Positions 1,699 through 45,917 of a DNA stretch of 64,000 nt are shown piece by piece. Origin of the DNA: Candidatus Kaiserbacteria bacterium (GTDB lineage Bacteria > Patescibacteriota > Minisyncoccia > Phycocordibacterales > UBA918). The stretch is taken from positions 576,317 through 640,316 of the forward strand of contig CP064968.1 of NCBI GenBank assembly GCA_016699245.1, given 5' to 3'. The notes under the pieces are model-generated. The model had not been told where the DNA came from. It ran no database searches and worked only from the letters and a program-made list of their open reading frames with translations. How positions within the stretch are numbered: the stretch's first letter is position 1; each line of letters opens with the position of its first letter. Made by a program: the position numbers and the translations under genes.

Positions 1699-1763
1699 AC
1701 TAAAAACTATATCACAAAAGAAAACAGCCTCGAAGCGAGGCCGTTTCATCTGAGGACGAAAAA

Positions 1764-2246: not shown

Positions 2247-2264
2247 TGTACCACAAAATATTTT

Positions 2265-2993: not shown

Positions 2994-3396
2994 ACAAAGG
3001 AGTCATAGTTGCGGCAGAAGTAGTCGCTATAGGTACTACAACCGGTACTACGATTGAGGTCGTAGAAGATACCGTAGGTGTAGGACTTTCTACTGCGGGA
3101 GGAGTTTCAAACTCCGATACAAAAGGAGGAAGGTTCTCCTCAGACGATAATCGTTCTGGTGCAACATATGTCCGGCGTACTTTCTCGATAAATGCATCTC
3201 GCCCCTCGCGCAAAGAATTTTCTTCGTACGGCACCACCTCATATGAGTCTTTTGGTGTAGCGAGCAGGACTGCTGATGTATCGGGTGTTGATTCTACAGT
3301 CTCGGATACTGGAGACAGCAGTATGTATATCACCCACACCAAAAACGTGAGAAAGAGAGAGACGACAACAACGAGCAAATCGCGGGTGCGTGGCAT
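2974..3396 (-). CDS. Small membrane-anchored Thr/Pro-rich protein
   Basis: N-terminal TM helix followed by a low-complexity T/S/P-rich tail. It overlaps a same-region ORF on the other strand. The minus-strand ORF was chosen because it shares strand with its neighbours. Confidence 0.3.
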   Translation of the reverse strand: MPRTRDLLVVVVSLFLTFLVWVIYILLSPVSETVESTPDTSAVLLATPKDSYEVVPYEENSLREGRDAFIEKVRRTYVAPERLSSEENLPPFVSEFETPPAVESPTPTVSSTTSIVVPVVVPIATTSAATMTPLYGNTRL

Positions 3397-30216: not shown

Positions 30217-30304
30217 GTATTGATTCTACATAATTTTTCCTCAGGAAACTACTATTACGTGCTGGCCGTCTGGGACGATATGAGAACTTATGTAACCACC
30301 CATT

Positions 30305-31228
30305 TCATCGAGATTGTGTACCCAGACATGCACGGAGATCTGCTGTCTCTGTCCAGCCACATTGACCACTTGCTTGACGTTCGCACACTGCACTCTGATA
30401 GCAAGCGTATTCCTCCCTGAACTCACATGTTGATGCCATATCCGGTTGATCCGAGCAGAGCTGTGAGGAACAGCCACCGCGGTAACATGTATCTGAAGGG
30501 TTTGTCACGATAGGTGCATCTTGTTTTACTACATTAAAATTAAAACGGTATTCTGTCTCTTCGACATCTATTTTTGAATTTTTTGGAGGAGTAACGTTTG
30601 TCAGTGTTATGCTCATTCCCTCCGTTGTAAACTCTTGGCCAAGTTCTACTATACTCGTGCTTGTGCCGGTACGTGAGACCACTTGAATTTTGAGACGCAC
30701 CGTTCCAGCCTGAATACAGGTTACGTCAACAGGACAACGACTATCTTCTTCTATAGAAAGTGGAAGGATAGATATTGATGTAAAGGTACCAAGTTCTCCC
30801 AATCTAAGACCAGTATCTGTATCTGGCGATACGGAAGGAATCTGAGGAATTTCCTCAGCAGACTCACATGTCTCCAAGTCAATAAAATCTACCGCGCTGG
30901 AGTTTCCTCGTTTGTATTCTCCTAGCAACGTAATTGTCCTATCATTTTTCAAGTAATAGCACTTCGCATCCAATATACCCGGCACCCCGCTTCCTCGCTG
31001 TATAAATCCAAAATACCAACCATCTCGACTTTGTTTAGACTCTATAGAACTCGGGGGCAAATCAGTAGTCTGATATACAGCTAATTGAGGATATTGTACG
31101 AGTATTGCATCGAGCGCTTCCTTTTCTCCGAGTACGCTTGTAGGCTGAGAATCAGGCTGTATGAACATCTTTACCAAAAGTATGATTAGTAAAACTAAGA
31201 TAAAGGTGGCGAGTATTTTTGTTTTCAT
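30305..31228 (-). CDS. Secreted protein with a Cys-rich C-terminal domain
   Basis: Signal/TM N-terminus. The C-terminal 60 aa contain 10 Cys. Confidence 0.5.
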   Translation of the reverse strand: MKTKILATFILVLLIILLVKMFIQPDSQPTSVLGEKEALDAILVQYPQLAVYQTTDLPPSSIESKQSRDGWYFGFIQRGSGVPGILDAKCYYLKNDRTITLLGEYKRGNSSAVDFIDLETCESAEEIPQIPSVSPDTDTGLRLGELGTFTSISILPLSIEEDSRCPVDVTCIQAGTVRLKIQVVSRTGTSTSIVELGQEFTTEGMSITLTNVTPPKNSKIDVEETEYRFNFNVVKQDAPIVTNPSDTCYRGGCSSQLCSDQPDMASTCEFREEYACYQSAVCERQASGQCGWTETADLRACLGTQSR

Positions 31229-31467
31229 ACCTTAGTATACATTTTTATTGACTGTCTGGGTGGGTTAGCTCCGAAGGTCTGACCCTTATCGCTGTCAAAG
31301 CCATTTGCTAGCCATCTGGGACGATATTTGAACGTATTTAGCACTCTCAACGTAAGTATGAACTTGGGTCTGAAAAGTTCGACTATCTGGAGAATTTAAA
31401 ATCCTATATAAAATAGAATAAGATAAGTGGAAATGTGGTCAGTGAACCGACCCTATTTCTTGTAGAC

Positions 31468-32193
31468 TTAGATGGTGGCTCCACTGGGGAGATTCATTTC
31501 AGATTTGTACTTCTCGATAACTTCAGGATGTTTGCCTTCTTTGCATTCTGCGACAAATGTATTCGCTTCTGCGCTGTCGGGGAATGTCATATAGGAAAGG
31601 GCTCCTTCGCATATGACGTCCGCGTTTAATTTTCCAGAAACATGAGTCTGCCCATTAAATGCTTTAAGCGCGTTGGATTCTACAATACGCTCTGCTTCCT
31701 CATATCCCTCATGGTAATCAAAGTTCCAGCGCGGAGGAAGCGCGAATACGTAAAGATTATTTCTTCCTAGTTCAGTTGCGAGTATAGGAGCAGCTGATAC
31801 AGAAAAATCTTCAGCGATGTATGAATCCCATTGAGCCAAGGTGAAAACCATGACAGGAATATCTTCATACGGAAGTGTTGCGGTCCACTTTGGATTTCGG
31901 ATCAAAAGTGTAACCCCTGTTTGTGTACTTTCCGTGGACGTTAAGGGATTCCCTTCCCACGTGTTTTCTACAATGGAATATCCTTCCCAGTTTTGAGGGA
32001 GTGAAAAGGTAAATCCGAAGTCAGTATTGCTATATACGATAGAGGTGCTCGAAGCAGTGGGTTCCTGTACCGGCACTGTTACTTTATTTTTGTCACGAAG
32101 AGAATATCCTACTATTCCTAATACCATCAGACTTACGACGACGAGTAGTATAGAGATTATTTTGTTGCTTTTCATGTCTAAAGTGTACCACAA
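31468..32193 (-). CDS. Secreted hypothetical protein
   Basis: N-terminal TM/signal. No recognised motif. Confidence 0.5.
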   Translation of the reverse strand: MWYTLDMKSNKIISILLVVVSLMVLGIVGYSLRDKNKVTVPVQEPTASSTSIVYSNTDFGFTFSLPQNWEGYSIVENTWEGNPLTSTESTQTGVTLLIRNPKWTATLPYEDIPVMVFTLAQWDSYIAEDFSVSAAPILATELGRNNLYVFALPPRWNFDYHEGYEEAERIVESNALKAFNGQTHVSGKLNADVICEGALSYMTFPDSAEANTFVAECKEGKHPEVIEKYKSEMNLPSGATI

Positions 32194-32462
32194 AAAACAA
32201 TATCATTTTAGTTGTGTCAAGGCTGCGGGCCATCTGGGACGATGTTCGAACTTTTGTATTTAATGAATCTACTGTATAGTCACACTTGAGTGCTTGGATT
32301 ACCAATCTCTATGTCCGGTGTCGACAACAGGTTGAGAGCACAAGTAAACCTGCTGCCCACAGCCACGACAAACGACGGCCGTAACTATAACGGTCATCTG
32401 GTGTCCAAGCACTCACCCGCCACCTTTAATGGTGGCTTTTTCTTTCATAAAACGAGCTGGCC

Positions 32463-33038
32463 TTATGGGAGGATGTTAGAACCATCCTTCTCTAGAAAAT
32501 CTTTAATCTGCAGATTAGTCATTGGCGCTGATATTTTTCCAGAAAGATACTTTATCGTAACCACATGATGCTCCTCATCCCATGAATTGATACAATCCAA
32601 AGCAAGGATCACCTCGTAATCTCTCTGATATGCATCTATTACTGCCATTCTGACGCATGCATGCGTATTGATCCCTGATATGATGAGTGTATCTATTCCA
32701 AGCGCCTGAAGCATCTCATCAAGGTTAGTTTTATAGAACGGACTATACCTCCTTTTAATAATTTCTAAATCGTACGTCTGATGGTCAAGACCATCCAAAA
32801 GCTTGCTCCCTTCAGTTCCAGCAACAACAAATCTCTTACCTAATTTGCGATCGCCTATGAAGGCATCACTTCCATCAGGTTTCATTTCCTGCCTGACCCA
32901 AATGATCGGTACGCCATGCTCCCGTATTATTCCAGACAGAATATTTATCTTTGGAACTAAATCACTTTGAATTGCATTAAGTTCTACTGACTCAAAAAAA
33001 TCCTTTTGAAGATCAATGATGAGTAAAGCTGGTTTCAT
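32463..33038 (-). CDS. Isochorismatase-family cysteine hydrolase
   Basis: ALLIIDLQKDF (the catalytic Asp region), and a GINTHACV region containing the catalytic Cys. Confidence 0.7.
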   Translation of the reverse strand: MKPALLIIDLQKDFFESVELNAIQSDLVPKINILSGIIREHGVPIIWVRQEMKPDGSDAFIGDRKLGKRFVVAGTEGSKLLDGLDHQTYDLEIIKRRYSPFYKTNLDEMLQALGIDTLIISGINTHACVRMAVIDAYQRDYEVILALDCINSWDEEHHVVTIKYLSGKISAPMTNLQIKDFLEKDGSNILP

Positions 33039-33179
33039 ATTGCGTTAAGTGTATCAAAGTTCAAAAGTAAAACTCTTGATCTAATTCAACCTCAAATAAG
33101 GCTGGATGACGTGCTGGCCATCTGGGACGATGTTCGAACTTTTTTACAAACTAATCATTTCGTATACTATAATTAAGAA

Positions 33180-33977
33180 ATGAAAACTTGGCTGATTGGA
33201 AGCGACTTGGATGGAACACTGATCTATCCAGATAATTCTCCTGAAGTAAATCTGGGTACAAAAGCTTTTAACTTAATAATCCAAAAGCATAGAGAATCAC
33301 ATACTTTAGCCTACGTAACTGGCCGTCACCTTGAAAGAGCTAAAGAAGGAGTAAAAGAAGCTGGTCTTATTGAGCCAGATTTTTATATCTGTGATGTCGG
33401 AACCACTATCTATGAACAAAATGTCTTAACTGGAGCTTTTTCTCTTGACCAAGTTTATAGGGATCAACTTACAAAATCTTGGCAAGAAACCACAAAAGAC
33501 AAATTGATTGATTGGCTACAAAATTTTCCTTTCCTTACCCTACAAGAAGATAATAGACAGGGTGAATTTAAACTGTGTTACTACGTTTCTTCCGACATTG
33601 AGCGTGAATCATTTGAAAATTCTGTTATTAAACAGATAACAGAGGAATTTAAACTTCAAGCGATATACAGCACTGACCCAAATAATAATATTGGCTACTT
33701 AGATATCCTTCCTAAAGGAGCATCTAAAGAATCTGCATTAAACTTTCTAGCTCAAAAGACTAATATTTCTAAAGATAGAATTGTCTATGCTGGAGACAGT
33801 GGTAACGACTTAGCTGTCTGCAAAGCGGGAATAAAATTTATCATTCCTCAAAAAGCCAGTGAGGAAGTTAATTCTTTTTTCTTATCACCAGAAAATTCTA
33901 GTTGTATTTATTATAAGGTTACAGAGCCCTTTTGCTTTGGTTTACTTGAAGGACTCCGTTACTTTAAAGTCTTTTAG
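33180..33977 (+). CDS. HAD-IIB family hydrolase (sucrose-phosphatase / Cof-like)
   Basis: DLDGTL motif I, and motif III/IV YAGDSGNDLAV. A TTTACA-17 nt-ACTATAAT promoter-like sequence lies between motif copy 4 and the ATG. Confidence 0.7.
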   Translation: MKTWLIGSDLDGTLIYPDNSPEVNLGTKAFNLIIQKHRESHTLAYVTGRHLERAKEGVKEAGLIEPDFYICDVGTTIYEQNVLTGAFSLDQVYRDQLTKSWQETTKDKLIDWLQNFPFLTLQEDNRQGEFKLCYYVSSDIERESFENSVIKQITEEFKLQAIYSTDPNNNIGYLDILPKGASKESALNFLAQKTNISKDRIVYAGDSGNDLAVCKAGIKFIIPQKASEEVNSFFLSPENSSCIYYKVTEPFCFGLLEGLRYFKVF

Positions 33978-34196
33978 AAAATCTATAGTTGTATTGCTGG
34001 CCGTCTGGGACGATGTTAGAACTTTTTATACAACAAAAAAGTAAATATTTGCAAAATGCGTTACAATTAAAACTATATGGGCAGAAAAAAGAATGTAACT
34101 TGCACATCGGTATTCTAGGTATGCGGATTTCTCTTTTTTTTATATGCGAAATTTTGGTCCACCTCACTATCAATCCAGTCATGGGCAGAAGTCTCA

Positions 34197-34472
34197 ATGC
34201 CAATAACAGCTTATCTGTCGAGTACTGTTGTTATAGCGATGATGCTTTGGTTTGCTATGCAAAGAAGTAATAGTGTATGGCAAAAGACTGTATGGATACT
34301 TTTCGTAGCATTAATCATCGGTGGAGTTGGAAGCTATGTATGGAGAGGCAACACACTAGTAAATCAGTGCACATCACAAGGTGGAATACTTGACCAGCAA
34401 AATAAAGTTACTTCTTTTAATTTCAAATGCGAGCAAGTTGGCACAAATAAAATATTGCCTCTTGTGAATTAA
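34197..34472 (+). CDS. Small membrane protein
   Basis: 91 aa with two TM helices. Confidence 0.4.
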   Translation: MPITAYLSSTVVIAMMLWFAMQRSNSVWQKTVWILFVALIIGGVGSYVWRGNTLVNQCTSQGGILDQQNKVTSFNFKCEQVGTNKILPLVN

Positions 34473-34527
34473 TATTATGTTAGAAGACTAAAAAGCGATT
34501 GCTGGCCGTCTGGGACGATGTGAGAAC

Positions 34528-35004
34528 TTATTTAACAAGTTCAAGAGCGACTGATGCATAGCGATATACATCATCACGTAAACGTTCATCGTTTGTATGC
34601 ATTTGATTTAATTCTTCTTTTGTTACCCAAACACACTGAGCATTTTTACTTGCCTCCTCTTGGGGTTTTATTTCACGACTATTCGACTTTGCAAAAAAAA
34701 TAAAGGAGGAATGGTCGTGGTGCTCGTTAATTGAATGTCTATTAACAAAGATCGGTGGTACCAAATCTTTATTGATGTCAAAGTCTTGTTTGGTCCACGT
34801 ACTTGGTCCGATCAATTCGACTTTCAAACCAACCTCCTCCCAAACTTCTCGAAGTACTGCCTCATTAATATCTTCTCCTGGATCCACATGACCACCTGGA
34901 GCAATCCAGAAATTATATTTTTCGTGTAAACGTAAAAGCACGGCTTTGTCGTTCACGATATACGCATCAGTACAAAGATCGACATAATAATTTAAATGAG
35001 CCAT
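34528..35004 (-). CDS. NUDIX hydrolase
   Basis: Nudix box GGHVDPGEDINEAVLREVWEEVGL. Confidence 0.75.
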   Translation of the reverse strand: MAHLNYYVDLCTDAYIVNDKAVLLRLHEKYNFWIAPGGHVDPGEDINEAVLREVWEEVGLKVELIGPSTWTKQDFDINKDLVPPIFVNRHSINEHHDHSSFIFFAKSNSREIKPQEEASKNAQCVWVTKEELNQMHTNDERLRDDVYRYASVALELVK

Positions 35005-35070
35005 ATCAAAAGTATACCAGACCTTCGACTTGAACCAATTTTTTATTGAAAGGTATGGCTAAAATAAAGA

Positions 35071-35089
35071 GCTGCCGATCAGGGACTCG
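35071..35089 (+). repeat. 19-nt exact copy of the tRNA-Gln 3' end (attR-like direct repeat)
   Basis: gctgccgatcagggactcg is identical to 44643-44661. An inverted partial copy lies at 35196-35207, and a GAACAGTCCCCCGGACTGTT-type palindromic module at 35161-35183. Confidence 0.7.
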
Positions 35090-35538
35090 GTCACGAATCA
35101 CTAAGTATATTTGTTCGTCTACGACTCCAAATCTACTAAGTGTTCTCGACCCCGGCGGGTAAAACAGTCCCCCGGACTGTTTTCTTCCGCCTTTCGAGTC
35201 CCTAGGCAACAAACACAAAAATAACCGACTTTTGTCGGTTATTTTTGTGTTAGCTGGCAGCCTTGGACGATTTACGAACGCCAAAGTGGGTAGATTTGGT
35301 GGAATACCCCTCTCTCACACTCCAAGATATCCTTGAATTTACTCACTAATTCAGACAGAGAGGTTGAAGGGCCTAGAGTGATGAATGCTGATTACTATAC
35401 AAATTCGTAACTTTGCGGGGGTTTTTTCATTTACTTTCGAACTTTTGTTTTTGAGTGGGGGTACCCCCCGAATTGACCCCACACGTCTTGCACAAAGTAC
35501 CCAACTATAGATGGAGAAAAAAATCTGGTAAATTTTGG

Positions 35539-35544
35539 TATAAT
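35539..35544 (+). promoter_or_regulatory. Extended -10 element TGgTATAAT, 7 nt upstream of the ATG
   Basis: tggtataat directly precedes the start codon at 35551. Confidence 0.4.
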
Positions 35545-35550
35545 TTCTAT

Positions 35551-36534
35551 ATGGAAAAACCAAAAATATCAAATGTCGAACATAATCAAAATTTAAGTAA
35601 CATTCATCAATTGGATGAGGCTGTGAGGCAATTATATAGTAAGCCTGAGAACGACGAAGAGCTTGTGGAGCGAGTTAGGATTCTGAAAGAGATCCCTGAA
35701 AATTTAAATACACCTAAGGTGCTTGTTAAACTCGGTGACCCTACAAAGGCAGACAAGTTTATATATATGCACGATGATGAGGGGAAGGAGTATCTTATCG
35801 CACTACCCATAAACAAGATGGATTATCATAGGCAGATAGCGAATTTTGCGAGGAAGCTCTATGGAAAAGATTTTAAAGTCGATGGTGGTGGGTATCTAAG
35901 TGTGCGTGATGGCAATCTTGTTGTGCATGGTAGTTCTGGATCATACGGAAATTTTCCCCCTCGCGTTGTGTCAATTTTAAAGGAATCATTTCCAGACATT
36001 AATGTAGTTGATGAATCTCCATCTATTGTTGAACAAGATAAGATAAACAAGGAGCACAAAGCAGTTCTTGAGTCTATTGAAGATCCAGTTCAATCTGAAT
36101 TGTATTCTGTAGTAACGGGAGATCTTGGTACGAAAATGGGGTACGACTCCACGACACTTCCGCGTCCAGTTGATAATGCTGACGAGATGTCACATATGAT
36201 ATACAGAAGTGAAAATGGTGGTTCCTTTGGAGTCGACACGCTTTTTGTGGCTCGAAGAAAGGAAGACCACACGTTAGCAGTTAATGAAGTAGCTGTTACA
36301 CGATGGGCTATTCATGATGTGAGTGCACGAGCAGAGGGAGATACGATTATATTTGAGTTCACCACTAACGGCGAAAAGCAGGTACTATCTTTACCTATGA
36401 GTGAAGTCGACAAGAGAGAAGCTTATACGGACTTAAATGAACCAGAGAAAATCATTCTCAAAATGTATAAAGACAACCAAGCTATCTACAATACTGGGAC
36501 AAAACCAAAAATAATGCACGGCTCAGCACACTAA
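35551..36534 (+). CDS. Hypothetical protein (328 aa), divergent from the vWA/AAA+ operon
   Basis: No recognised motif. Start placed at MEKPKISN. Confidence 0.55.
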   Translation: MEKPKISNVEHNQNLSNIHQLDEAVRQLYSKPENDEELVERVRILKEIPENLNTPKVLVKLGDPTKADKFIYMHDDEGKEYLIALPINKMDYHRQIANFARKLYGKDFKVDGGGYLSVRDGNLVVHGSSGSYGNFPPRVVSILKESFPDINVVDESPSIVEQDKINKEHKAVLESIEDPVQSELYSVVTGDLGTKMGYDSTTLPRPVDNADEMSHMIYRSENGGSFGVDTLFVARRKEDHTLAVNEVAVTRWAIHDVSARAEGDTIIFEFTTNGEKQVLSLPMSEVDKREAYTDLNEPEKIILKMYKDNQAIYNTGTKPKIMHGSAH

Positions 36535-36546
36535 TTAATTAGTGTG

Positions 36547-38796
36547 CTATATCTTTACTCCTCCAAGGTACTTCTTAAGAGCTTCGGAGAGCACTGGGAG
36601 TAGTTTTTGCATATCCACGCCAACAACCATTCCGCGTTTCTCATTCTCATCACTATTCCATGCATAGTTAAATGCTCTTTCTTCAGATCTACCGACTTGA
36701 CCGATCTGAAATGCGCTCGCATGAACACCAACTTCCACCATTTTTTTAACTGCTTCTTGAGTTGCTCCAGCATCGCTTGATCCACCGTCTGTAATCTCGA
36801 AGAGTATATCTAGAATCTTCCCTTGTTGTATTCTTTGTTTACTCACTTCATCTTGAGTTTCGAGTATATGATTTAAAGCGACATGATCATAGGTGTTTCC
36901 ATTTTCAGCACCAGACTGCTTCAATGTATTAAGAATCTCAATCGTCGGGTCTTCTTCTCCACTTTCTGAATCAAGCTTCTTGATGATCGATAAAGTATTA
37001 CTGAATCCGAGTACCTGTGTTTCGACTTTGAGCTTTGAACCTGTACTACCTCGAGTAAGATTGAGCATCTCGTTAAATTGTTGAAGCGATCTGAGAATGA
37101 GAACTAGGGTCTTGGCAAGCACATTTTGCTTCGTTTCATCATCCATTGAACCTGATTTGTCCACCACAAGACGAACCCTAATGACCTCGGGCTTTTCAAC
37201 TGTAGATTCCTTCGTTATCACCTTATCGTATATTCTTGGCGAGGACTGACCTGCATAGATTGCCCCCATATTGTCTATGACGGAGTCGATATTTAAGTCA
37301 AAACCAGATGAGTGTGCACTATCTCTTGTGTGTGTAATTTCAATCGAACTTCCCGTAATGATATTTTGCCACAACTCAGTAAGATCATTCAGATACGGAA
37401 GAATACTCTCCTCAATCCTTCGGAGAGAACGCAATTCTTGATATATGTTTCTACCTTGAATTTCGTGCTGGTTTGCCCAATCTTTGTCTAAGTTTTCCTG
37501 AAAGGCACGTTCACTCTTCGGTTGTTCTTTTACTTTTCCATCCTTCTGAGCGTCTTTTGCCTTTTCTTCCTCTTTACGTTCAGTAAATTTCTTTATCTCG
37601 TCCTCATTGAGTTGATCAGGGCTTTGTGATTCAAACTTTTCATGAATATTTGACCACTCTTTAAATTTTTGCTCTTGTCGCTCTTTTGACGAAGTTCCAG
37701 TTGAATTAGTATTTTGTTGCTCGTTACTAGCAGTACCATCTGATTTTTTGTCCTCATTTCCGCTACCACTTTGTGACTTATCCGTCCCTTGATCCTCAGG
37801 ATTCTTATTTTCTGACTGACCTTTATCTTCAGTACTTTCTTGATTTTTCTGTTCAGGACTTTCATTACCCTGATTTTGTTCTTGCCCATTATCTTGGTTA
37901 GGATTGGATCCGTCATTCTTCTTATCCTCAGGATTTGAATCCTTATTCTCGTTAACATCCTTTTGTATCAAAGCTTCGTATATTGGTTGGATATACCTCT
38001 TTAAGTACTCATGTCGTGCTGACGCTTTTGCATCAGTTCGACCTGGAACCATAAAAGTATGGATGAGTGACTCCACGTCATATTCTTTATTGCCGACAGT
38101 AATTTGGGTATCTAGTGCCTCTCTCACCTCAGCATCTACAACAATTTCCTCGCTAGGGAGCATGGCTTTCCGAAGTAGATAATATGCAAACTGAAGATGT
38201 CGGGGGATTTGTGAAATTGAACCATCGTCTCCTTGTACATTAGTAAAATCTGAATCTTTAAATAATTTTTCTCGGTACAAATCTTCCACATGCTTTCCAC
38301 CTTGTCTTTTGCTTTCGTAATAACTTGCCCGTCTTGATACCACTTTATTTACATAGACATCATCCAAACAGTTGAATAACGTGTGGTACGTCTTATAGGC
38401 AAGTTGCGGATCCATCTCTGTTTCCTTTGAAAGTGTATCCGCCTTTCCTTTCATGTATTCAAAACTCGCAAGCAATCCTTCTTTGTCAGTAGCAAAATCT
38501 CTAAAATGTGAAAGTTCATGAAATACTGCCCAGAGTATTTGCTCTTTATTGTACCCTCGTTCAAAAAACCATTTGCTGTCGAGTTGTACGACCCCATTCT
38601 CGTAATCAATAAGAAATTGGTCCTCCATTTTGAATCTGAGCGAGACATCCTCGGCAAAGGAGTTGAGGAGTCTTCTGTGGCTATTCACAAAATCCTCACC
38701 CTGCTTTTTATAGGCTTCAATTTCCATCTCTACAGATGGTCGTTTTATTTGATCTATCGAATTGAATTTAAACTTTGGAGGCATATTAATAACCAC
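36547..38796 (-). CDS. von Willebrand factor A domain protein with an N-terminal HExxH zincin-like region and an acidic low-complexity linker
   Basis: FHELSHF near residue 90. A ~110-aa N/Q/E/K-rich linker. C-terminal vWA with MIDAS motif VVDKSGSMDD. It overlaps the upstream AAA+ gene by 11 nt, consistent with one operon. Confidence 0.7.
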   Translation of the reverse strand: MVINMPPKFKFNSIDQIKRPSVEMEIEAYKKQGEDFVNSHRRLLNSFAEDVSLRFKMEDQFLIDYENGVVQLDSKWFFERGYNKEQILWAVFHELSHFRDFATDKEGLLASFEYMKGKADTLSKETEMDPQLAYKTYHTLFNCLDDVYVNKVVSRRASYYESKRQGGKHVEDLYREKLFKDSDFTNVQGDDGSISQIPRHLQFAYYLLRKAMLPSEEIVVDAEVREALDTQITVGNKEYDVESLIHTFMVPGRTDAKASARHEYLKRYIQPIYEALIQKDVNENKDSNPEDKKNDGSNPNQDNGQEQNQGNESPEQKNQESTEDKGQSENKNPEDQGTDKSQSGSGNEDKKSDGTASNEQQNTNSTGTSSKERQEQKFKEWSNIHEKFESQSPDQLNEDEIKKFTERKEEEKAKDAQKDGKVKEQPKSERAFQENLDKDWANQHEIQGRNIYQELRSLRRIEESILPYLNDLTELWQNIITGSSIEITHTRDSAHSSGFDLNIDSVIDNMGAIYAGQSSPRIYDKVITKESTVEKPEVIRVRLVVDKSGSMDDETKQNVLAKTLVLILRSLQQFNEMLNLTRGSTGSKLKVETQVLGFSNTLSIIKKLDSESGEEDPTIEILNTLKQSGAENGNTYDHVALNHILETQDEVSKQRIQQGKILDILFEITDGGSSDAGATQEAVKKMVEVGVHASAFQIGQVGRSEERAFNYAWNSDENEKRGMVVGVDMQKLLPVLSEALKKYLGGVKI

Positions 38797-41557
38797 GTGC
38801 TATTTGTGGTGCGACAAATCGGTGTGTAGAGAAACTCCCGTTTACTTTTGAGACTTTCCATTCTTGATCTCCAATGCGTTTTACTGAAATAAGGACATTT
38901 TCATCACTCTTTAATTTTATACAAAAAAGGACGGGGTCATCTGCGTACATTGATCCAAAACTCTTCTCAAGATGCTCATTGTCTCTCCATCTTTCTTCAT
39001 AGTAAATAAACAGTTTAATCATCCATGGCTCAGTGAATATGAAGTCACTCAATAATTCTTTCAGTTTATCGATAGAAACAGTGTATGCAGGAAGTCTTTG
39101 ATCTTCTCTCCAATCAGCACCGTAATACTGATTAAATTCAAAACTACTCTTATTTTTAAAGATATGTGCGGCCTGTTCAAAAACTTGTTCGACTTCTGGA
39201 TCTAAGGACATTTTTAGCTTTTTAAATTCTTGAGATTCTTTTTCGTCCATATCAAATGCAGTAAATTGAGATCCGCGATTGATCATACTTCTACCAGTCC
39301 TTGGCTGAAGTGTTTTTGAGTCAGTACCTGGTTTCAAGTTTGGGAAATCAGGAGTGCCACAATATAATTCTCGTTCACGTCTTTCCTTGGTGAATTCGAT
39401 AAATTTACTAAACCCCTCGTCGAGCTTACTTTGAGCATCTTTGTCACCCAATGCAACCCGAACTCTTAACTCAAGTCGTTGTCCCAGCACTTCTTTAACG
39501 TTGTGTAATTCAGACCCAAAATCTTCTTCTAGTTGGTGCAAGAAGTCAGTATGATATTTAACAAATGCTTCATTGATCTTAAATTTCTCTGTGTATGTTG
39601 CAGCAATAGATGGAAAAAGATTCTTCTCACTTTCTATCACTCTTTCGACAGAAGCAACCGCTTGTTCTACTGAATCATACTTACCAGGATCATCTAAAGC
39701 TTTTACTACCTCAGAAAACGTGCTCTGCAACAATTGTTCTTCAGTTTCGTTTAAAAGATCCGTGGTCGTATTAATCTCTTCCTTCTCTCCATTTTTTAGA
39801 TGCTTTCTTAATTTAAAGACAAGCTCCTTAATTTTTGAGAGAGATTCATTACCATACTCCAAAACAGGAGCGAGTGAGGTCTTCAGATCGGATGAAACAC
39901 CTTCTGCTGAGACAAATTTTTGCAGTGTTCTTATGTTATTTTCCAGTTTCAGAATTGTGTATTCACTTTTCTTTATTCTTTCAAAATCGTACGGAAATTC
40001 ATTTCTTTCAGGAGCTTTTCCGTATACATTTTCAACAACTTCGCGTACGGTAGTAAACTGTAGATCCCTCCCTTTATTTTCAGGAGTGTGGATCGCTGAG
40101 TCAAATGTTCCAGCCTTTGCTACAGCCTCTTTCCACGAAGCATCAGTGAGAAATCCTTCTGCTTGAAGTTGTTGGACGAAAAACTTTACGTCCATTGCAT
40201 TTGTGAGTGGTGCGATTAACTCTTTATAAATATAGAAATCAAATTCGTTTTCAAAGTTATCTCGTTTCCACGACTCAATAACTTGCTTCACGTCACGCAT
40301 GCTTACGACCGACGATGTCGCAGTAAGTGGTACATTTAAGCCAGCCTGTCCCGAAAACAGCTTCCCATCGCGCTGACCACTGTATACTTCCTGGACCTTT
40401 CGTATAAACTTTGCCAATCGCCACAAATCATCGAAAGCATCTTCTGGAGCGTTCACATCCCCTTTATCGTTCATCAGCATCGCGATCATAAGCGTATACA
40501 ATTCATTTCCTCGCTCAGCCGTTTCTTGGTATGTGCCCTCTGTGGCTTGCGGTAAATAATCGTAATCTATCGGACGGATTCTGTTTACAAAATCCGCAGA
40601 CAATTCAAAAAGTCCTTTATACCTATCTATCGCCTTTGGATTGCGGTTTAAGTTTCCAGTCATAATGACTCCGAATCCTGGTCTTGCAATCATTTTTGTC
40701 CCCTTAGGGTCGCCGATAACAGGAACTTCTTCTCCACGTTTCGCATTAATAATTATGTCATTAAGTGATTTAAGTATCTCAGGTGGAATTGCGTTAACTT
40801 CTTCGATAATGAGAGGAATTCCTTGATCCATTGCCCTATATAGGGGACCCAAAACAAAATTTGCCTGTGGACCACGTTCATCTGACGTTAAATCAATTTT
40901 CCCAAATATCTTTGTTTCATCAATACCTTTTGCACCCGCTATTCTTTCTGGCTCAACACTTAACACCTCACTACAAAAATATTTAGCAACAGACGATTTA
41001 CCTGAACCCGTTTCACCATTCAGAAAAGGGATCTTATCAATTGCATAGTAATTATCTTGAAGCTCATCTAATTTCTTTTCTGCGTATGGTGTAAGCACAA
41101 AATCACCAGACTTTAACTCCTTTCGATACTCTCGTAATTCAAGGGCATTTCGAACAATATATGCTTCTGGGTTCGACCACATAAGCTCTGCGATTGAAGT
41201 TTCTACACCCTCGATCTCAGTATTAATCTTCTTCATTGCTTCAATCACCTGCGGTGGTCGATTGAGTGCGGAATTGATTGGAAAACGCTCCTCAAATTTT
41301 AACTTTGCATCTTTGAGAGCCACAACTCTCTTATCAAAGACATGAAATGCCCGTGCGGCCTCTTTAACATTTTTTAATCTAAGCTCAATAAGAGCATTCT
41401 CTTCAACAGAAAAATCAACATCATTTGTAATAGTTTCTGTCAAAAAGACACGTAAATCGTCAGGTAGATCCAGATCAGTTGCACTAGACAAATTCTCACG
41501 CGTAACGATTTCTTTTTTGTTTACTGATTCCTCAACAGGTTTCCAACTCTCTTTCAT
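38786..41557 (-). CDS. Large AAA+ ATPase (MoxR/AAA_5-like core), paralog 1
   Basis: Walker A LNGETGSGKSS, Walker B PLIIEEVNA, sensor-1 VIMTGNLN. 923 aa with long N- and C-terminal extensions. Confidence 0.7.
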   Translation of the reverse strand: MKESWKPVEESVNKKEIVTRENLSSATDLDLPDDLRVFLTETITNDVDFSVEENALIELRLKNVKEAARAFHVFDKRVVALKDAKLKFEERFPINSALNRPPQVIEAMKKINTEIEGVETSIAELMWSNPEAYIVRNALELREYRKELKSGDFVLTPYAEKKLDELQDNYYAIDKIPFLNGETGSGKSSVAKYFCSEVLSVEPERIAGAKGIDETKIFGKIDLTSDERGPQANFVLGPLYRAMDQGIPLIIEEVNAIPPEILKSLNDIIINAKRGEEVPVIGDPKGTKMIARPGFGVIMTGNLNRNPKAIDRYKGLFELSADFVNRIRPIDYDYLPQATEGTYQETAERGNELYTLMIAMLMNDKGDVNAPEDAFDDLWRLAKFIRKVQEVYSGQRDGKLFSGQAGLNVPLTATSSVVSMRDVKQVIESWKRDNFENEFDFYIYKELIAPLTNAMDVKFFVQQLQAEGFLTDASWKEAVAKAGTFDSAIHTPENKGRDLQFTTVREVVENVYGKAPERNEFPYDFERIKKSEYTILKLENNIRTLQKFVSAEGVSSDLKTSLAPVLEYGNESLSKIKELVFKLRKHLKNGEKEEINTTTDLLNETEEQLLQSTFSEVVKALDDPGKYDSVEQAVASVERVIESEKNLFPSIAATYTEKFKINEAFVKYHTDFLHQLEEDFGSELHNVKEVLGQRLELRVRVALGDKDAQSKLDEGFSKFIEFTKERRERELYCGTPDFPNLKPGTDSKTLQPRTGRSMINRGSQFTAFDMDEKESQEFKKLKMSLDPEVEQVFEQAAHIFKNKSSFEFNQYYGADWREDQRLPAYTVSIDKLKELLSDFIFTEPWMIKLFIYYEERWRDNEHLEKSFGSMYADDPVLFCIKLKSDENVLISVKRIGDQEWKVSKVNGSFSTHRFVAPQIARGY

Positions 41558-41608
41558 AGTACTGTTGATTATAGCTCATTAAATATGAATTTGTTTGTCA
41601 TTATTCCC

Positions 41609-44470
41609 CTAGTTAAAAGCTTTTCCTGTGATTGTTGGAGCAACGAACTGCTGGGCAGAAATCGATGGCTGGGTAACTTTAGTGATACTCCATTCATGAT
41701 CCCCAGTCCTGTCTAAAGCAAGTAAGACATCCTCACCATTTTTTTGGGCAACACAAAATACTGCTGGGAAGCTATACATGTATGCCTTTGCATAATCTTC
41801 AGAGTATTCGTACAATTTCTCGGAATGGTATATAAATCCTTCAACCATCCATGTGTCACTTTTGGAAAAACCACTGAGTAGCGTGTTAATTTTTTTCGTA
41901 TCAATCTCGAATGATTTCGGGTTTGGATTACCATTCTCGTCTCTCGTATCGAAGAAATCTTTTTGAAAGAAAAGCTGAAAAGTAACTGCACTTTCTTCTT
42001 TAAAAACTCTTCTCGCATTTGCAAAGACTTCTTCGACACCAGCATCCTTATGAATGATTGTTTTTTCCAACAACTCCTTGCGGTAATAAGCTAGTCCTTT
42101 TTCATCTCTGAAATGAGGGTTAAAAATAGCTGGAATTTGATCAAGCTCAATTATTTCACTTTTCTCATCAAGATTCGGATATACATCTGTTCTCAGTGTC
42201 CAGCGCAAGTCGTTATGTTTACGAAAGAAGAAATTAAAATCACTCATTAAGACAGATGCGGGATGTTTTACGTCCTCCAATGTGTACATATCAGCCCCAA
42301 GTCTTAATTCTAAATCAAGTATACGATTTATTATTTCATTCACACGATCAGCAAGAGTCAGGTCCGAATGAAAATTTTTGACTAGTTCATTTTTTTCCTC
42401 CAGCAATCCTTCCAATTCGACAATCAATTCTTTTTTACCAAGTATCTGATCTGGATTCCTTTTTGTTTCATACTCTTCGATTCTGTTGCTTGCTGCAATA
42501 TAGTCCTCAGTGTATACATCCTTTAATTCTGACCATAACGTTTCTTCTTTTTTGATTCTTTCCTTCCATAAATCCACGAACTCCCCAGCCTTTATTATCC
42601 GTCTATTTTGAAGAGAATCAACGGTTTTAAGTACTTTTTCGATTGATCCTGCACGAAGTTGAGTCAATGACTCACTTAGCTGTTCACCGAGTATACGAAG
42701 TTTCTTTCCGTCTCGTGTTTGGTGTGCATCCTCCATTTCTTTTACTAGAGTGGTAACGTCTGCTTCAAGTTCTGCAAGACCATCACGAATGCCACGAAAT
42801 TGATTATTTTCTGCACCCTCAAGAAATGCGTCCATTTTTTCTTTTTGTGACTGTACAGTGCAGAGTTCGCTCTTTGCATAGGTAATAACATTAGGATCAT
42901 ACTGTGGGTACTCCTTTCTCTCAGGAATTTTCCCGTAAACATTTTGTACAACGTCGCGAACAGTCGAAAACTGAATTTCTTGCCCCTTATTTTCAGGAGC
43001 ATGCATAGCAGAATCGAATGTCCCAGCTTTTGAAACGACATCCTTCCATGACTGATCAGTAAGGAAACCTTCAGACTGAAGTTGTTGAACAAAAAACTTT
43101 ACATCCATTGCATTAGTGAGCGGTGCAATAAGTTCCTTATATACGTAGTAATCAAACTCTCTTTCAAAATTATCTCGCTTCCATGACTCAATAACCTGCT
43201 TCACATCGCGCATACTCACGACTGAAGATGTGGCGGTCACAGGCATATTCAGTCCGCCTTGTCCTGAAAATAATTTCCCGTCTCGCTGACCGCTGTAGAC
43301 TTCTTGTACTTTTCGGACAAACTTTGCCAAACGCCACAAATCATCGAACGCCTCTTTAGGTGCATTTACATCACCCTTATCGTTCATGAGCATTGCGATC
43401 ATGAGTGTGTAAAGTTCATTACTTTTTCCCGCCTCTTCAATGTAGTTACCTTCAGTTGATTGGGGTAGATAATCGTAATCTATTGGACGAACGCGATTAA
43501 CAAAATCGGCAGAAAGTTCAAATAGCCCTTTGTATCGATCGATAGCCTTTGGATTGCGATTGAGGTTTCCGGTCATGATCACGCCGAATCCATCCTTAGC
43601 CTTTACTTTTGAACCCTTGGGGTCACCAATAACAGATACCTCCTCACCCTTTTTCGCATTGATAATTATGTCATTGAGTGATTTTAGGATCTCAGGCGGA
43701 ATTGCATTAACTTCTTCAATAATGAGGGGAACTCCTTTTTCCATTGCACGATAAAGGGGACCTGGCACAAAGCGTGCCTGTGGTCCGTTCTCGTCTGAAG
43801 TAAGATCAATTTTGCCAAATATTTTTGTTTCATCAATTCCTTTTGCTCCCGCAATTCGCTCTGGTTCTACCTCAAGTACTTCAGCGCAGAAATACTTGGC
43901 GATTGATGATTTCCCTGACCCCGTCTCTCCATTTAGAAAGGGGATCTTATCTATTGCGTAGTAGTTATCTTGGAGCTCGTCTATCTTTCTCTCAGCGTAT
44001 GGAGTCAAAACAAAATCCCCCGACTTTAATTGCTTTCTGTACTCACGCAACTCTAAGGCATTACGCACCACATATGCTTCTGGATTTGATTGCATTAATT
44101 CTGCAGTCGAGTTTTCTATTTCCGATATTTCCGTATCAATTTTTCTCATCGCCAAAATTACTTGCGATGGACGGTTTTGTGCAGAATTGATTGGAAATTT
44201 TTCCTCAAACCTAAGCTTTGCGTGTTTAAGTGAATCTATCTTTTTGTCAAAAGCACGAAACGCTCGAGCGGCCTTCCTTACATTTTGGATTCTTAGTTCA
44301 GCAAGTACGGTTTCCTCTGCTGTTAAACCAACCTCATCTGGTATGGTTTCTGTAATGTATGACTGGAGTTCTGGAGGGAGATCAAGATCCTCGGATCGAG
44401 CTAGATTTTCACGTGCAATAACTTCCTTTTCATTGACTGACTTTTCAATCGGTTTCCAGTTTTCTTTCAT
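41609..44470 (-). CDS. Large AAA+ ATPase (MoxR/AAA_5-like core), paralog 2
   Basis: Collinear with paralog 1, with the same Walker A/B and sensor-1 motifs. Start moved to MKENWKPIEK by alignment with paralog 1. Confidence 0.7.
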   Translation of the reverse strand: MKENWKPIEKSVNEKEVIARENLARSEDLDLPPELQSYITETIPDEVGLTAEETVLAELRIQNVRKAARAFRAFDKKIDSLKHAKLRFEEKFPINSAQNRPSQVILAMRKIDTEISEIENSTAELMQSNPEAYVVRNALELREYRKQLKSGDFVLTPYAERKIDELQDNYYAIDKIPFLNGETGSGKSSIAKYFCAEVLEVEPERIAGAKGIDETKIFGKIDLTSDENGPQARFVPGPLYRAMEKGVPLIIEEVNAIPPEILKSLNDIIINAKKGEEVSVIGDPKGSKVKAKDGFGVIMTGNLNRNPKAIDRYKGLFELSADFVNRVRPIDYDYLPQSTEGNYIEEAGKSNELYTLMIAMLMNDKGDVNAPKEAFDDLWRLAKFVRKVQEVYSGQRDGKLFSGQGGLNMPVTATSSVVSMRDVKQVIESWKRDNFEREFDYYVYKELIAPLTNAMDVKFFVQQLQSEGFLTDQSWKDVVSKAGTFDSAMHAPENKGQEIQFSTVRDVVQNVYGKIPERKEYPQYDPNVITYAKSELCTVQSQKEKMDAFLEGAENNQFRGIRDGLAELEADVTTLVKEMEDAHQTRDGKKLRILGEQLSESLTQLRAGSIEKVLKTVDSLQNRRIIKAGEFVDLWKERIKKEETLWSELKDVYTEDYIAASNRIEEYETKRNPDQILGKKELIVELEGLLEEKNELVKNFHSDLTLADRVNEIINRILDLELRLGADMYTLEDVKHPASVLMSDFNFFFRKHNDLRWTLRTDVYPNLDEKSEIIELDQIPAIFNPHFRDEKGLAYYRKELLEKTIIHKDAGVEEVFANARRVFKEESAVTFQLFFQKDFFDTRDENGNPNPKSFEIDTKKINTLLSGFSKSDTWMVEGFIYHSEKLYEYSEDYAKAYMYSFPAVFCVAQKNGEDVLLALDRTGDHEWSITKVTQPSISAQQFVAPTITGKAFN

Positions 44471-44523
44471 AATGTCCATTATTATACCCAAAAAATACTG
44501 GGTAGTTTGTTGGTCCCAAAAAC

Positions 44524-44549
44524 AAAATCCACCCAAATGGGTGGATTTT
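44524..44549 (-). terminator. Terminator hairpin downstream of tRNA-Gln
   Basis: aaaatccaccc aaat gggtggatttt. Confidence 0.55.
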
Positions 44550-44640
44550 TAGTTTGGATACTGCTCTCAGCAGGTATGCCATTTCAGAATAGTCCTCGGG
44601 TGGTTTCGACGCGTCTCGTGCGCGATAACCTACCTCGAGT

Positions 44641-44714
44641 TGGCTGCCGATCAGGGACTCGAACCCCAATGACTTCCTCCAGAGGGAAGCATCCTACCAT
44701 TAGATGAATCGGCA
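44641..44714 (-). tRNA. tRNA-Gln (anticodon CTG), CCA encoded
   Basis: Manual cloverleaf: U1-A72 acceptor pair with G73, as in bacterial tRNA-Gln. Anticodon loop CTCTGGA. T-loop TTCGAGT. Confidence 0.7.
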
Positions 44715-44719
44715 ATGTG

Positions 44720-45224
44720 ATATGTGCGTTTGTACAAGGTTCTCGTTTGGACTCGATTCCTACAGAATCTGTTCAGGTTGTCGATACTTTATTTCGCATG
44801 CACTCATAAATTATCTGGCAACCTTCTTGAAAAGTCTCCCAGACTTTTCAAGCCCCAATGACTTCCTCCAGAGGGAAGCATCCTACCATTAGATGAATCG
44901 GCAATGTTTGTTTTGTACTTTGTTTGTTCTCGTTTGGACTCGATCATTACATGATCAGTACACGTTGTCGATATTTTTACAAAATATCTGGCAACGTCCT
45001 GAAATGATACCCCATATCATTTCAGCCCCAATGACTTTCTCCCGGGGGAAGAATCCCACCATTAGATGAATCGGCAATATTTTGTACGTCGCCCAGATTA
45101 CTTTTTTTGGGATGCGTGTGTGCATCGTCTGTTTTTCTTCCGTGGGGAAGAAAAACAGACGGGCTCAGAAATTATAATTGCTTCGCTCTTTAATTTCTGG
45201 CCACCATTAGATGAATCGGCAATG
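44720..45224 (-). repeat. Two and a half tandem ~180-bp units, each ending in a copy of the 5' ~55 nt of tRNA-Gln
   Basis: Fragments at 44853-44906 (near exact), 45026-45078 (diverged) and 45201-45224 (short). The spacers share blocks ttctcgtttggactcgat...gttgtcgata...atctggcaac. Confidence 0.7.
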
Positions 45225-45299
45225 TGTATTGCTTTGGAACTCCCAAATCAATAGCGTCTGAATTCTAACAGATTTTTCAATTTTTGCTATACTTTTATC

Positions 45300-45917
45300 A
45301 TGCAAAAAATACGAGTATTTATTATCCATGGTGGGATGACTTTTAAAAGTAAAAAGGATTATATTACGTACCTTACGACCCGAGAAATTTCTATTGATCG
45401 TAAGCCAAACTGGACTGAAGAATATCTGAATACCTCTCTCGGAAAACAGTTTGAGATAGTCCGGCTCCGTATGCCAACCCCCGACAACGCCCATTATGAT
45501 GAATGGAAAATTCACTTTGAGCGCTATCTTCCCTTCTTCACGAAGCAAGTCATTCTTATTGGAGAATCTCTTGGTGGCATTTTCCTTGCACGATATCTTT
45601 CTGAGAACCGCCTTCCACAAAAAGCACTTGCGACATATCTCGTTTGTCCTCCTTTTGATAACTCTCTTTCTGATGAAGACTTGGTGAATGGCTTCAAACT
45701 CAAACCAGACCTTTCCCTTCTTCCTGAAAACACGAATCATCTTTCAATTCTCTTCTCCGCAGATGATGATGTCGTCCCCGTGCAACATGCAGAAAAATAT
45801 CGTGAAAAACTTCCCACCGCAATGATACGGATACTCAAAGGAAAAAATGGACATTTCAACGTGAGCAAATTACCCGAAATAGTAAAAATGATTCTCAAAG
45901 ATACGCGTCCACGATAA
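45300..45917 (+). CDS. Alpha/beta-fold serine hydrolase (YdeN/RBBP9-like)
   Basis: GESLGG nucleophile elbow (GxSxG). Confidence 0.6.
   Translation: MQKIRVFIIHGGMTFKSKKDYITYLTTREISIDRKPNWTEEYLNTSLGKQFEIVRLRMPTPDNAHYDEWKIHFERYLPFFTKQVILIGESLGGIFLARYLSENRLPQKALATYLVCPPFDNSLSDEDLVNGFKLKPDLSLLPENTNHLSILFSADDDVVPVQHAEKYREKLPTAMIRILKGKNGHFNVSKLPEIVKMILKDTRPR

Follow-up and report, generated by a model that had tools for sequence, protein, structure and literature searches.

Co-oriented motif copies downstream of tRNA-Gln in a Kaiserbacteria genome: a probable stack of serine-recombinase junctions around small cargo cassettes

What kind of system places one copy of the same short motif, always in the same orientation, between unrelated small genes that themselves point both ways? 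The question is raised by a stretch of 64,000 nucleotides from a Candidatus Kaiserbacteria bacterium (assembly GCA_016699245.1, contig CP064968.1, positions 576,317 to 640,316 of the forward strand), referred to here as the window, in which such an array occupies 30.26–35.28 kb. The initial annotation had seen in it a chromosomal integron or another site-specific cassette system or, alternatively, a shared operator or promoter element. The array is real, non-random and widespread in Patescibacteria, and the analysis presented here indicates that it is probably a stack, seeded at a tRNA-Gln gene and lying downstream of it, of attachment junctions used by a large serine recombinase (LSR) and bounding cargo cassettes that lack the LSR and may be either relics or still mobile.

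A 29-nt pattern searched with up to three mismatches gave six matches in the window (at 30261, 31307, 32225, 33113, 33996 and 34501), all on the + strand, and no match in 100 shuffles of the sequence. A diverged copy at 35253–35281 and a degenerate one at 32456–32484 bring the array to eight copies, six strong and two degenerate, each on the + strand, with one motif copy in every intergenic gap. The seven co-oriented copies first described were thus borne out as the six strong copies and the diverged one, the degenerate copy being an addition, and the motif was indeed absent from the other 59 kb, where neither the pattern search nor an nhmmer profile found a further copy. Conservation reaches slightly past the 29 nt of the pattern, to ~34–37 nt (TGCTGG...GAACnnttnT). 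The motif shows no dyad symmetry.

Public collections were searched with a 23-nt core pattern, GCCRTCTGGGACGATRTNNGAAC, which was present in 62 stretches of the genome collection and 114 of the metagenome collection (176 in total) and gave no match in the viral collection. Every named genome record with the motif was a metagenome-assembled genome (MAG) of Patescibacteria, including Paceibacteria, Kaiserbacteria, Adlerbacteria, Berkelbacteria and bins labelled Saccharibacteria. In a profile search, co-oriented arrays of up to 10–11 copies were found in 77 of 178 sequences, and no locus among the 178 had copies in mixed orientation. The intervals between motifs had a median length of 694 bp (interquartile range 504–1105, n = 157) and contained a single open reading frame (ORF) in 101 of 155 cases; stop codons clustered 0–10 nt from the motif, whose sequence was conserved across genomes whereas its flanks were not. 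The motif bounds mostly single-ORF units, and the arrays have an integron-like layout in which the site lies at the 3′ end of the ORF and all sites are co-oriented. The same 178 sequences contain 43 tRNA-Gln genes, and in all 80 of 80 motif/tRNA-Gln pairs the motif lies downstream of the tRNA 3′ end in one relative orientation, a polarity also followed by the tRNA-Gln and the motifs of the window. Relative to this polarity, 152 ORFs in the intervals run in the tRNA sense vs 67 in the antisense direction. Some contigs start or stop exactly at a motif or overlap only via the motif (L024, L042, L055/L057, L134, L066/L142 and L068/L072), so that the repeat breaks assemblies and arrays are probably under-represented in bins.

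That the units between motifs behave as cassettes was apparent from comparisons of related contigs. L092 and L114 are 99–100% identical around a wholly different segment of 2.1 and 2.2 kb, respectively, and both breakpoints fall exactly at the GCTG edge of the motif core, which makes the swapped unit a cassette together with its own copy of the motif. The same type of homology boundary at the motif was seen in L043/L045 and L004/L020, and the same gene-plus-motif unit recurs among different neighbours in related genomes. The cassette half of the earlier proposal is thereby upheld and the integron half is not, as discussed below. For the window itself, strain comparison via an identical SDR protein retrieved a 3-kb contig only.

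A candidate enzyme emerged from the related loci. In the sense of the tRNA, the motif reads GGTTCCAACATCGTCCCAGACGGC-CA-GC and the tRNA-Gln 3′ end reads GGTTCGAGTCCCTGTCGGG-CA-GC, and these are termed here the P arm and the B arm, respectively. In 11 loci selected by the motif, a protein of 486–502 aa with Resolvase, Recombinase and Zn_ribbon_recom domains, i.e. an LSR, was encoded, and most of these loci also hold an adjoining rolling-circle Rep gene (REP_ORF2-G2P/RepSA). Coming from the tRNA side, the LSR-Rep module invariably precedes the first motif, with the LSR gene antisense to the tRNA. In loci that include the 3′ end of the LSR gene, this end abuts the 3′ end of tRNA-Gln in L153 (LSR gene at 1650–3098), a 3′ fragment of tRNA-Gln in L158 and L111 and a B-type pseudo-site (GGTTCATGACCGTGACAGT-CA-GC) in L095; in L036 and L106, which represent one population assembled twice, no recognised tRNA-like sequence was found at the LSR 3′ end. 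LSR elements were tRNA-proximal with motif arrays beyond them in L138 (10 copies), L046, L036, L178 and L193. The closest solved structure to the LSR is that of the SPbeta integrase, and a protein search returned at least 1,846 members of the family with E ≤ 1e-30; no close relative was found in the viral collection.

The association was also examined from the side of the enzyme, using LSR homologues chosen by protein search with the motif ignored, which gave five chromosomal contexts. In four of these (L178, L179, L192 and L193) the LSR 3′ end and a tRNA-Gln overlap, in the same relative placement each time, and in the fifth (L191) a B-type pseudo-site, GGTTCCAGACCCGTGATGC-CA-GC, stands in place of the tRNA. 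Co-oriented motif copies lie upstream in L178, L179, L191 and L193, and L192 has a weak match only. A sixth homologue, P0019, is encoded on eight contigs from different samples (L183–L190) that represent a single 5,696-bp circle in circularly permuted form, and in this circle the motif is located directly at the LSR 3′ end; both integrated ends are thus joined there, as expected of attP. Further, L158 and L111 have both flanks in common, with different elements between them and LSRs sharing ~41% identity; the units are therefore mobile, with the tRNA-type arm and the motif as their ends.

The intact LSR-Rep elements (L179 4711–9270, L191 6297–9200, L183–L190, L192, L153 and L087) carry cargo rich in defence and selfish genes. 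Examples are ThsB-TIR with 8xMP (Thoeris), BsaWI, DpnI and Mrr restriction genes, methyltransferases and SduA_C (Shedu), along with HEPN, MutH, an HNH nuclease and a group II intron-type reverse transcriptase.

Comparison of the two arms provided a second line of evidence, from the anatomy of the site. The inner 16 nt next to the end are identical at 13 of 16 positions between the motif and a typical tRNA-Gln 3′ end (e.g. in L074 and L118), and the motif has five extra bases between this inner part and a GGTTC box. Counted outward from the CA, the box occupies positions 16–24 in the motif and 11–19 in the 43 tRNA-Gln 3′ ends, so that the element-side arm measures 24 nt and the host-side arm 19 nt. 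In serine integrases, the zinc-ribbon-domain (ZD) motif is located at bp 16–24 of attP half-sites and is shifted 5 bp toward the centre, to 11–19, in attB half-sites (Rutherford et al. 2013; PMC3783163). Judged by sequence, the geometry of the motif and the tRNA-Gln end is this published attP-vs-attB geometry. It is thus likely that the motif combines the element-side P arm with the core of an LSR attachment site, and that each chromosomal copy represents an attR-type junction (P arm, core, downstream DNA).

The CA found in tRNA-Gln ends and in motif copies would be the crossover (central) dinucleotide and mark the exact cleavage point, since TA replaces it in both attL and attR of the L158/L111 site and a variant at another tRNA retains it. 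In the latter case, the end of a tRNA-Arg(GCG) reads GGTTCGAATCCTCTCAGGCG-CA-CC and the local motif variant GGTTCGAACATCGTCCCAGATGGCG-CA-CC (both ...GGCG-CA-CC), with arms of 25 nt in the motif variant vs 20 nt in the tRNA, so that the 5-nt difference is kept. This looks like a natural retargeting to another tRNA in which, on the sequences compared, the core-proximal bases have changed to match. The variant was observed at L166 (104–566), L088 and L075, and no LSR is present on these three contigs. The window has its own P-arm variant (AAGTTC..., GGCCAGC). In LSR terms, copy 1 of the window would consist of GC, the central dinucleotide TG (30263–30264, the complement of CA) and then the 24-nt P arm as reverse complement.

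These observations can be accommodated in a model of serial integration. The motif would be the P arm and crossover core of the site used by an LSR family carried on small LSR and rolling-circle-Rep elements of Patescibacteria. Integration of such an element at the tRNA-Gln 3′ end would give, in order, the tRNA with its B arm, CA, P′, the LSR, Rep and cargo genes, the P arm, CA and the old flank, so that each event would leave one P arm at the far end of the insert, in a fixed orientation whatever the direction of the cargo. Successive insertions would push older units away from the tRNA, and in the window the oldest would then be at 30.26 kb and the newest would be a 9.4-kb island beside the tRNA. 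The units would now hold cargo only, mostly one gene ending right at the P arm, and the LSR-Rep module would have been either lost from each cassette or absent from it at the start.

The order of features in the window is that of a tRNA-seeded array, as are the single polarity and the position of the LSR elements nearest the tRNA in related loci. In the tRNA sense, the live tRNA-Gln(CTG) gene (44641–44714, − strand; 3′ end GGTTCGAGTCCCTGATCGG-CA-GC) is followed by the 9.4-kb island with copy 7, 150 nt with two hairpins, a tRNA remnant at 35071–35102, the NUDIX cassette with copy 6, five more cassettes and finally copy 1 beside an SDR gene. The 3′ end of the live gene would be the attB-type half-site and the anchor of the whole array. 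The genes upstream of tRNA-Gln are core genes (DnaX, Dus, SerRS, CTP synthase-FtsX-FtsE-RF) in the window and related loci alike. The remnant at 35071–35102 (+ strand; repeat family D17) is a displaced tRNA-Gln 3′-end copy, i.e. a B-arm remnant as reverse complement, and is 84% identical to the gene at 44641–44714. It is this sequence, and not the last motif copy, that represents the true tRNA-Gln 3′ copy: the array had been described as ending at a tRNA-Gln 3′-end copy, and the seventh copy proved instead to be a diverged motif.

The unit next to the remnant bears on the proposed order of events. The entire NUDIX cassette extends over 34501–35070, and its end away from copy 6 reads 35070...TCTTTATTTTAGCC. 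Homologues of this NUDIX-plus-motif unit with 64–74% aa identity are present in L090, L143 and L076, and the cassettes have in common the gene, a TGnTATACT −10-like box and a motif abutting the stop codon. At the same aligned place, the cassette is preceded by the tRNA B-arm remnant in the window vs the P arm of another cassette in L090 and L143. The NUDIX cassette of the window therefore once stood first behind a tRNA-Gln end.

Several points weigh against a stack built by serial LSR integration, the first being the enzyme. No LSR or other recombinase was found in the window by Pfam scans of ~60 ORFs or by phmmer/tblastn with XerD, Hin, LSR and Rep queries; the linked LSR gene is present in the 11 motif-selected loci and the five independently picked contexts and not in the window, so that the enzyme is deduced from related loci and is a candidate that would act on the motif and tRNA-Gln sites. 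The second concerns the site. Canonical LSR sites are quasi-symmetric, and a canonical attL is no substrate for a second integration. Here the right half-sites P′ and B′ are not conserved in the arrays, and in the LSR elements they are unlike an inverted P arm, and the site is not a quasi-palindrome of two related half-sites. The third is the clean state of the arrays, as tblastn with three LSRs and three Reps detected no LSR or Rep fragment inside any array or in the window, although pseudogene fragments would be expected if full elements had simply decayed. Lastly, many P arms are near consensus and arrays have lineage-specific P-arm variants, and the conserved P arms together with the L092/L114 swap look more like continuing site-specific exchange than like passive scars. 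A string resembling a P′, AAATCACC..GGTG, was considered as a cassette 5′ end and rejected, as it is largely LSR C-terminal coding region or hairpin.

The last three of these points lead to the alternative that survives best, that of an active integron-like platform. Here only the left half-sites would matter, the tRNA end would stay attB-like after each insertion, each gene with its P arm would retain a working attP-like site, and an LSR acting in trans would excise, capture and reshuffle LSR-less cassettes singly or in blocks; since the enzyme would need only one specific half-site per partner, the products would remain substrates. Such a platform would account for P and B arms that are conserved next to P′ and B′ that are neither conserved nor symmetric, for the prevalence of single-ORF intervals, the tRNA-sense bias and the stop codons commonly abutting the motif, and for arrays free of LSR/Rep debris. 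It would also fit the NUDIX-plus-motif cassette lying behind a B arm in the window and behind the P arms of other cassettes elsewhere, the internal swap between L092 and L114 with breakpoints exactly at the core edge, and the frequent ending of contigs at a motif, which suggests polymorphism within populations. On the other hand, no circular LSR-less cassette was seen, the 5′ ends of cassettes (P′) are in general not conserved, and the internal swaps could have come about by homologous recombination between identical flanks. Moreover, for known LSRs, recombination of attL or attR with another site depends on a directionality factor (PMC3783163). Continuing exchange of this kind is therefore possible but doubtful. 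Equally tentative is the wider proposal that Patescibacteria might carry a second, independently evolved cassette platform, a serine-recombinase “integron” in which the 3′ end of tRNA-Gln (in one lineage tRNA-Arg) would be the permanent point of entry, each cassette would be closed by a one-sided attP-type half-site of 24 nt, and a small episome would supply the LSR.

Much less probable is an origin of the motif copies from ordinary tyrosine-integrase islands or prophages that inserted in the tRNA gene and left duplicates of the host tRNA-Gln 3′ end, which then decayed. The motif does resemble the tRNA-Gln 3′ end, and the window has a true displaced copy of that end at 35071–35102 as well as 5′ fragments upstream of the gene. 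However, the motif has a consensus of its own with a fixed 5-nt insertion, it is better conserved across genomes than are tRNA-Gln acceptor stems, its acceptor-like part is unable to pair with the host tRNA 5′ strand, and in the circular element it adjoins an LSR gene. No tyrosine recombinase was linked to the arrays: a phmmer search of the 178 sequences with E. coli XerD gave one unrelated match, in L042, which did not adjoin an array. The insertion and the lack of pairing with the host 5′ strand also led to the rejection of a functional tRNA 3′ half as an explanation of the motif.

A classical chromosomal integron, or a cluster of attC sites lacking an integron integrase (CALIN), in which the motif would be part of an attC site recombined by IntI, is suggested by unrelated single-gene units separated by co-oriented repeats, and is very hard to reconcile with the remaining data. 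As already noted in the initial annotation, no intI-like gene is visible, and this extends to IntI/Xer-like genes both in the window and beside the arrays; Pfam scans covering ~60 ORFs of the window and another 150 taken from the first 62 loci, together with ORF clustering, revealed no recurrent recombinase. The attC-like folding that had been proposed as a check was not supported, as left/right flank duplex energies (15, 25 and 40 nt; 72 copies) were no better than those of permuted pairs (Mann-Whitney p 0.26–0.47), mutual information showed no covariation between flank columns beyond a neighbour effect, and it is sequence, not structure, that is conserved across classes. A short hairpin (GATATT..AATATC) following GAAC in some copies did not survive these flank-pairing and covariation tests, and a Xer/dif-type site was rejected on reading the sequence, which has no inverted arms around a 6–8-bp spacer.

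A shared operator, promoter element or terminator regulating the small genes is just as improbable: the motif is intergenic and one promoter-like site follows copy 4, but the orientation of the motif is fixed while the genes run both ways, it is tied to tRNA-Gln polarity in 80/80 pairs, most genes have it at their 3′ end, mobile elements terminate in it and the circle is joined at it, and promoter-like matches in the region are below expectation (8 found vs 12.7 expected from shuffles in a consensus scan). The promoter reported after copy 4 as TTTACA-17-TATAAT reads in fact TTTACA-16-TACTAT, with TATAAT at a spacing of 19.

With the motif read as a probable LSR-type half-site, the individual cassettes of the window can be described from the distal end inward. 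The six small genes on both strands are as the initial annotation had described them, three being assigned by Pfam and three lacking a confident family. Motif copy 1 (30261–30289, + strand; 0 mismatches, nhmmer 37 bits) is the distal-most junction of the array and adjoins the SDR gene. Its stop codon 16 nt from copy 1, the cassette 1 gene (30305–31228, − strand, tRNA sense) encodes a 307-aa Cys-rich secreted protein without a Pfam family, and a protein identical to this product has a weak Heavy_Cys_CGP match. Copy 2 (31307–31335, + strand; 34 bits) has three mismatches to the pattern of the initial annotation. The cassette 2 gene (31468–32193, − strand, tRNA sense) encodes 241 aa with a signal or transmembrane segment and has a sub-threshold PsbP_2 match only.

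Copy 3 (32225–32253, + strand; found by pattern and nhmmer) is separated from the degenerate copy 3b by 231 bp without an ORF, containing just a terminator-like hairpin at 32417–32436. Copy 3b (32456–32484, + strand), which was detected with a repeat finder (repeat family D2, 62%) and scored 13 bits with nhmmer, forms an in-frame fusion with the next ORF at its 3′ end and encodes ...GSNILP followed by the stop codon. This ORF specifies an isochorismatase-family hydrolase of 191 aa (32463–33038, − strand, tRNA sense; PF00857, E 2e-40). Beyond copy 4 (33113–33141, + strand; pattern, nhmmer 42 bits) lies the gene for a HAD-IIB/sucrose-6F-phosphate-phosphatase-like hydrolase of 265 aa (33180–33977, + strand, antisense to the tRNA; PF05116, E 2e-47), and beyond copy 5 (33996–34024, + strand; pattern, nhmmer 43 bits) that for a small membrane protein of 91 aa without a family (34197–34472, + strand, antisense to the tRNA). 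Copy 6 (34501–34529, + strand; pattern) overlaps with its GAAC end the stop codon of the NUDIX hydrolase gene (34528–35004, − strand; 158 aa, PF00293).

The low-GC island of 9.4 kb is bounded distally by the diverged copy 7 (35253–35281, + strand), which was found with the repeat finder and agrees with the consensus at ~21 of 26 positions. The 150 nt between this copy and the tRNA remnant (35103–35252) hold a perfect hairpin with 23-bp arms (35207–35256) and a second terminator-like hairpin; this stretch is 81% identical to L027 3884–3996, and its neighbourhood is partly kept in L006. The island itself (35282–44640), the unit nearest the tRNA and presumably the newest, encodes two AAA_5 paralogues (923 and 975 aa) and has two further ORFs, of 359 and 749 aa. 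Its G+C content is 36–42% vs ~45% in the remaining window, with a drop from ~45% to 35–42% between 31 and 46 kb. No recombinase was found in the unit, in which tblastn with LSR and Rep queries was negative. The giant AAA_5 paralogues are dynein/MoxR-like, with DNA that is 77% identical across a 300-nt repeat, and the 749-aa protein has an acidic linker; the unit may be a defence or vWA-MoxR-type module.

The surroundings of the tRNA-Gln gene show further irregularities. Upstream of the live gene, three extra tRNA-Gln 5′ fragments (44852–44906, 45025–45079 and 45210–45233, − strand) are arranged in tandem units of ~175–190 nt. Two of them extend to the T-stem (…CATTGGGG) and are followed by a hairpin and ~100 nt ending in a degenerate T-loop/acceptor-like string, ATCGAGTCCAAACGAGAAC; these may be tandem pseudo-tRNAs or reflect an insertion in the T-loop. 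Also upstream of the gene is a serine-hydrolase gene (45300–45917, + strand), a homologue of which (57% aa identity) in L091, L099 and L086 is the first cassette downstream of tRNA-Gln, on the tRNA strand. This placement on opposite sides suggests that an inversion, or a second, decayed tRNA-Gln anchor, may exist on that side.

A conserved element of ~40 nt, CAACTCGnG..AGGTTATCGCGCACGAGACGCGTC (also written CAACTCGnG..GGTTATCGCGCACGAGACGCGTC), directly follows the crossover core at 44603–44642 in the window and is also present in L148, L031, L137, L141, L165, L170, L177 and L087. It is placed after a live tRNA-Gln (the window and L148), after P arms (L031, L137 and L141) or after B-like remnants or pseudo-sites, and may represent either the trailer native to the tRNA (B′) or a 5′ end conserved among cassettes. 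Beside some motifs, an inverted tRNA-Gln 3′ half (T-loop to CCA) with a 15–22-nt hairpin insertion was observed (L004 ~1400–1600, L020 ~910–1120, L086 2940–3100 and L158 4125–4200). These inverted halves are followed by a terminator and sometimes by a tRNA 3′ remnant broken in the T-loop, and may be the product of an inversion between att sites or a small non-autonomous module. Farther away in the window, among tRNA genes, lies an isolated 140-nt match to bacterial large-subunit (LSU) rRNA (59186–59325, − strand; model positions 46–180), and one of the scanned window ORFs carries a LAGLIDADG_3 domain; the two might belong to an intron-interrupted or fragmented 23S gene.

Patescibacteria, or candidate phyla radiation (CPR) bacteria, have tiny genomes in which few mobile elements have been characterised. 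The 176 motif contigs and the at least 1,846 related LSR proteins point to a widespread route of gene gain in this group that is focused at one tRNA gene and brings in, among other cargo, small hydrolases and genes for defence (Thoeris, Shedu, restriction-modification, HEPN). The sites would be serine-integrase attachment sites with only one half-site specified, in arrays that are integron-like in layout, and if they stay recombinogenic they would constitute a natural exception to the rule by which the products of serine integrases stay inert unless a directionality factor is present. It is also worth noting that the pair of tRNA-Gln and tRNA-Arg sites shows core-proximal bases of the attP arm tracking the new target, which is relevant to the retargeting of serine integrases for genome engineering. 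For annotation, the motif offers a simple marker of cassette boundaries and assembly breakpoints in CPR MAGs.

The literature consulted, coverage of which was incomplete, yielded no account of arrays composed of attP-type half-sites or of any LSR-Rep element of Patescibacteria located at tRNA-Gln, and the locus is best placed by comparison with systems that share part of its features. The LSR attachment sites of A118/LI, Bxb1, phiC31 and SPbeta resemble it in the Resolvase, Recombinase and zinc-ribbon architecture of the associated protein, in an attP beside the integrase gene in the circular form, in the same 9-bp box at 16–24 and 11–19 with its 5-bp shift, and in a non-palindromic dinucleotide shared by attL and attR. 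They differ in that the target here is the 3′ end of a tRNA gene, that one half-site per att site is recognisably conserved, and that attR-type junctions pile up to 10–11 copies bounding single-gene units without a recombinase, in Patescibacteria hosts. Accretion of integrative and conjugative elements (ICE) and cis-mobilizable elements (CIME) at tRNA or other att sites of Streptococcus likewise gives tandem arrays bounded by att repeats in which some units are recombinase-less; those systems have tyrosine integrases, symmetric att repeats and large and few units, unlike the single-gene cassette arrays described here.

The building logic, tRNA-seeded and by serial integration, is shared with the tycheposon islands of Prochlorococcus, in which repeated integration occurs at one tRNA, newer elements push older ones inward, and an integration module is combined with a replication module and cargo, a minority carrying an LSR (bioRxiv 10.1101/2020.12.28.424599). 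The recombinases of most tycheposons are tyrosine enzymes, and incomplete tRNA copies and pieces of integrase genes are left behind (bioRxiv 10.1101/2020.12.28.424599), whereas the repeated sequence in the present arrays is a half-site of the element type and not a piece of tRNA, most units are single genes of ~0.7 kb and recombinase debris is absent. Integrons, finally, are similar in having a fixed entry site followed by co-oriented sites, each closing a mostly single-ORF cassette on its 3′ side, in their unrelated and variable gene content, and in what would be the newest unit lying beside the entry site. They differ in their tyrosine recombinase IntI, their folded attC and an attI beside the integrase gene, none of which is found here; in the arrays of Patescibacteria, the entry site is the end of a tRNA gene and the candidate enzyme is a serine recombinase that the mobile element itself carries.

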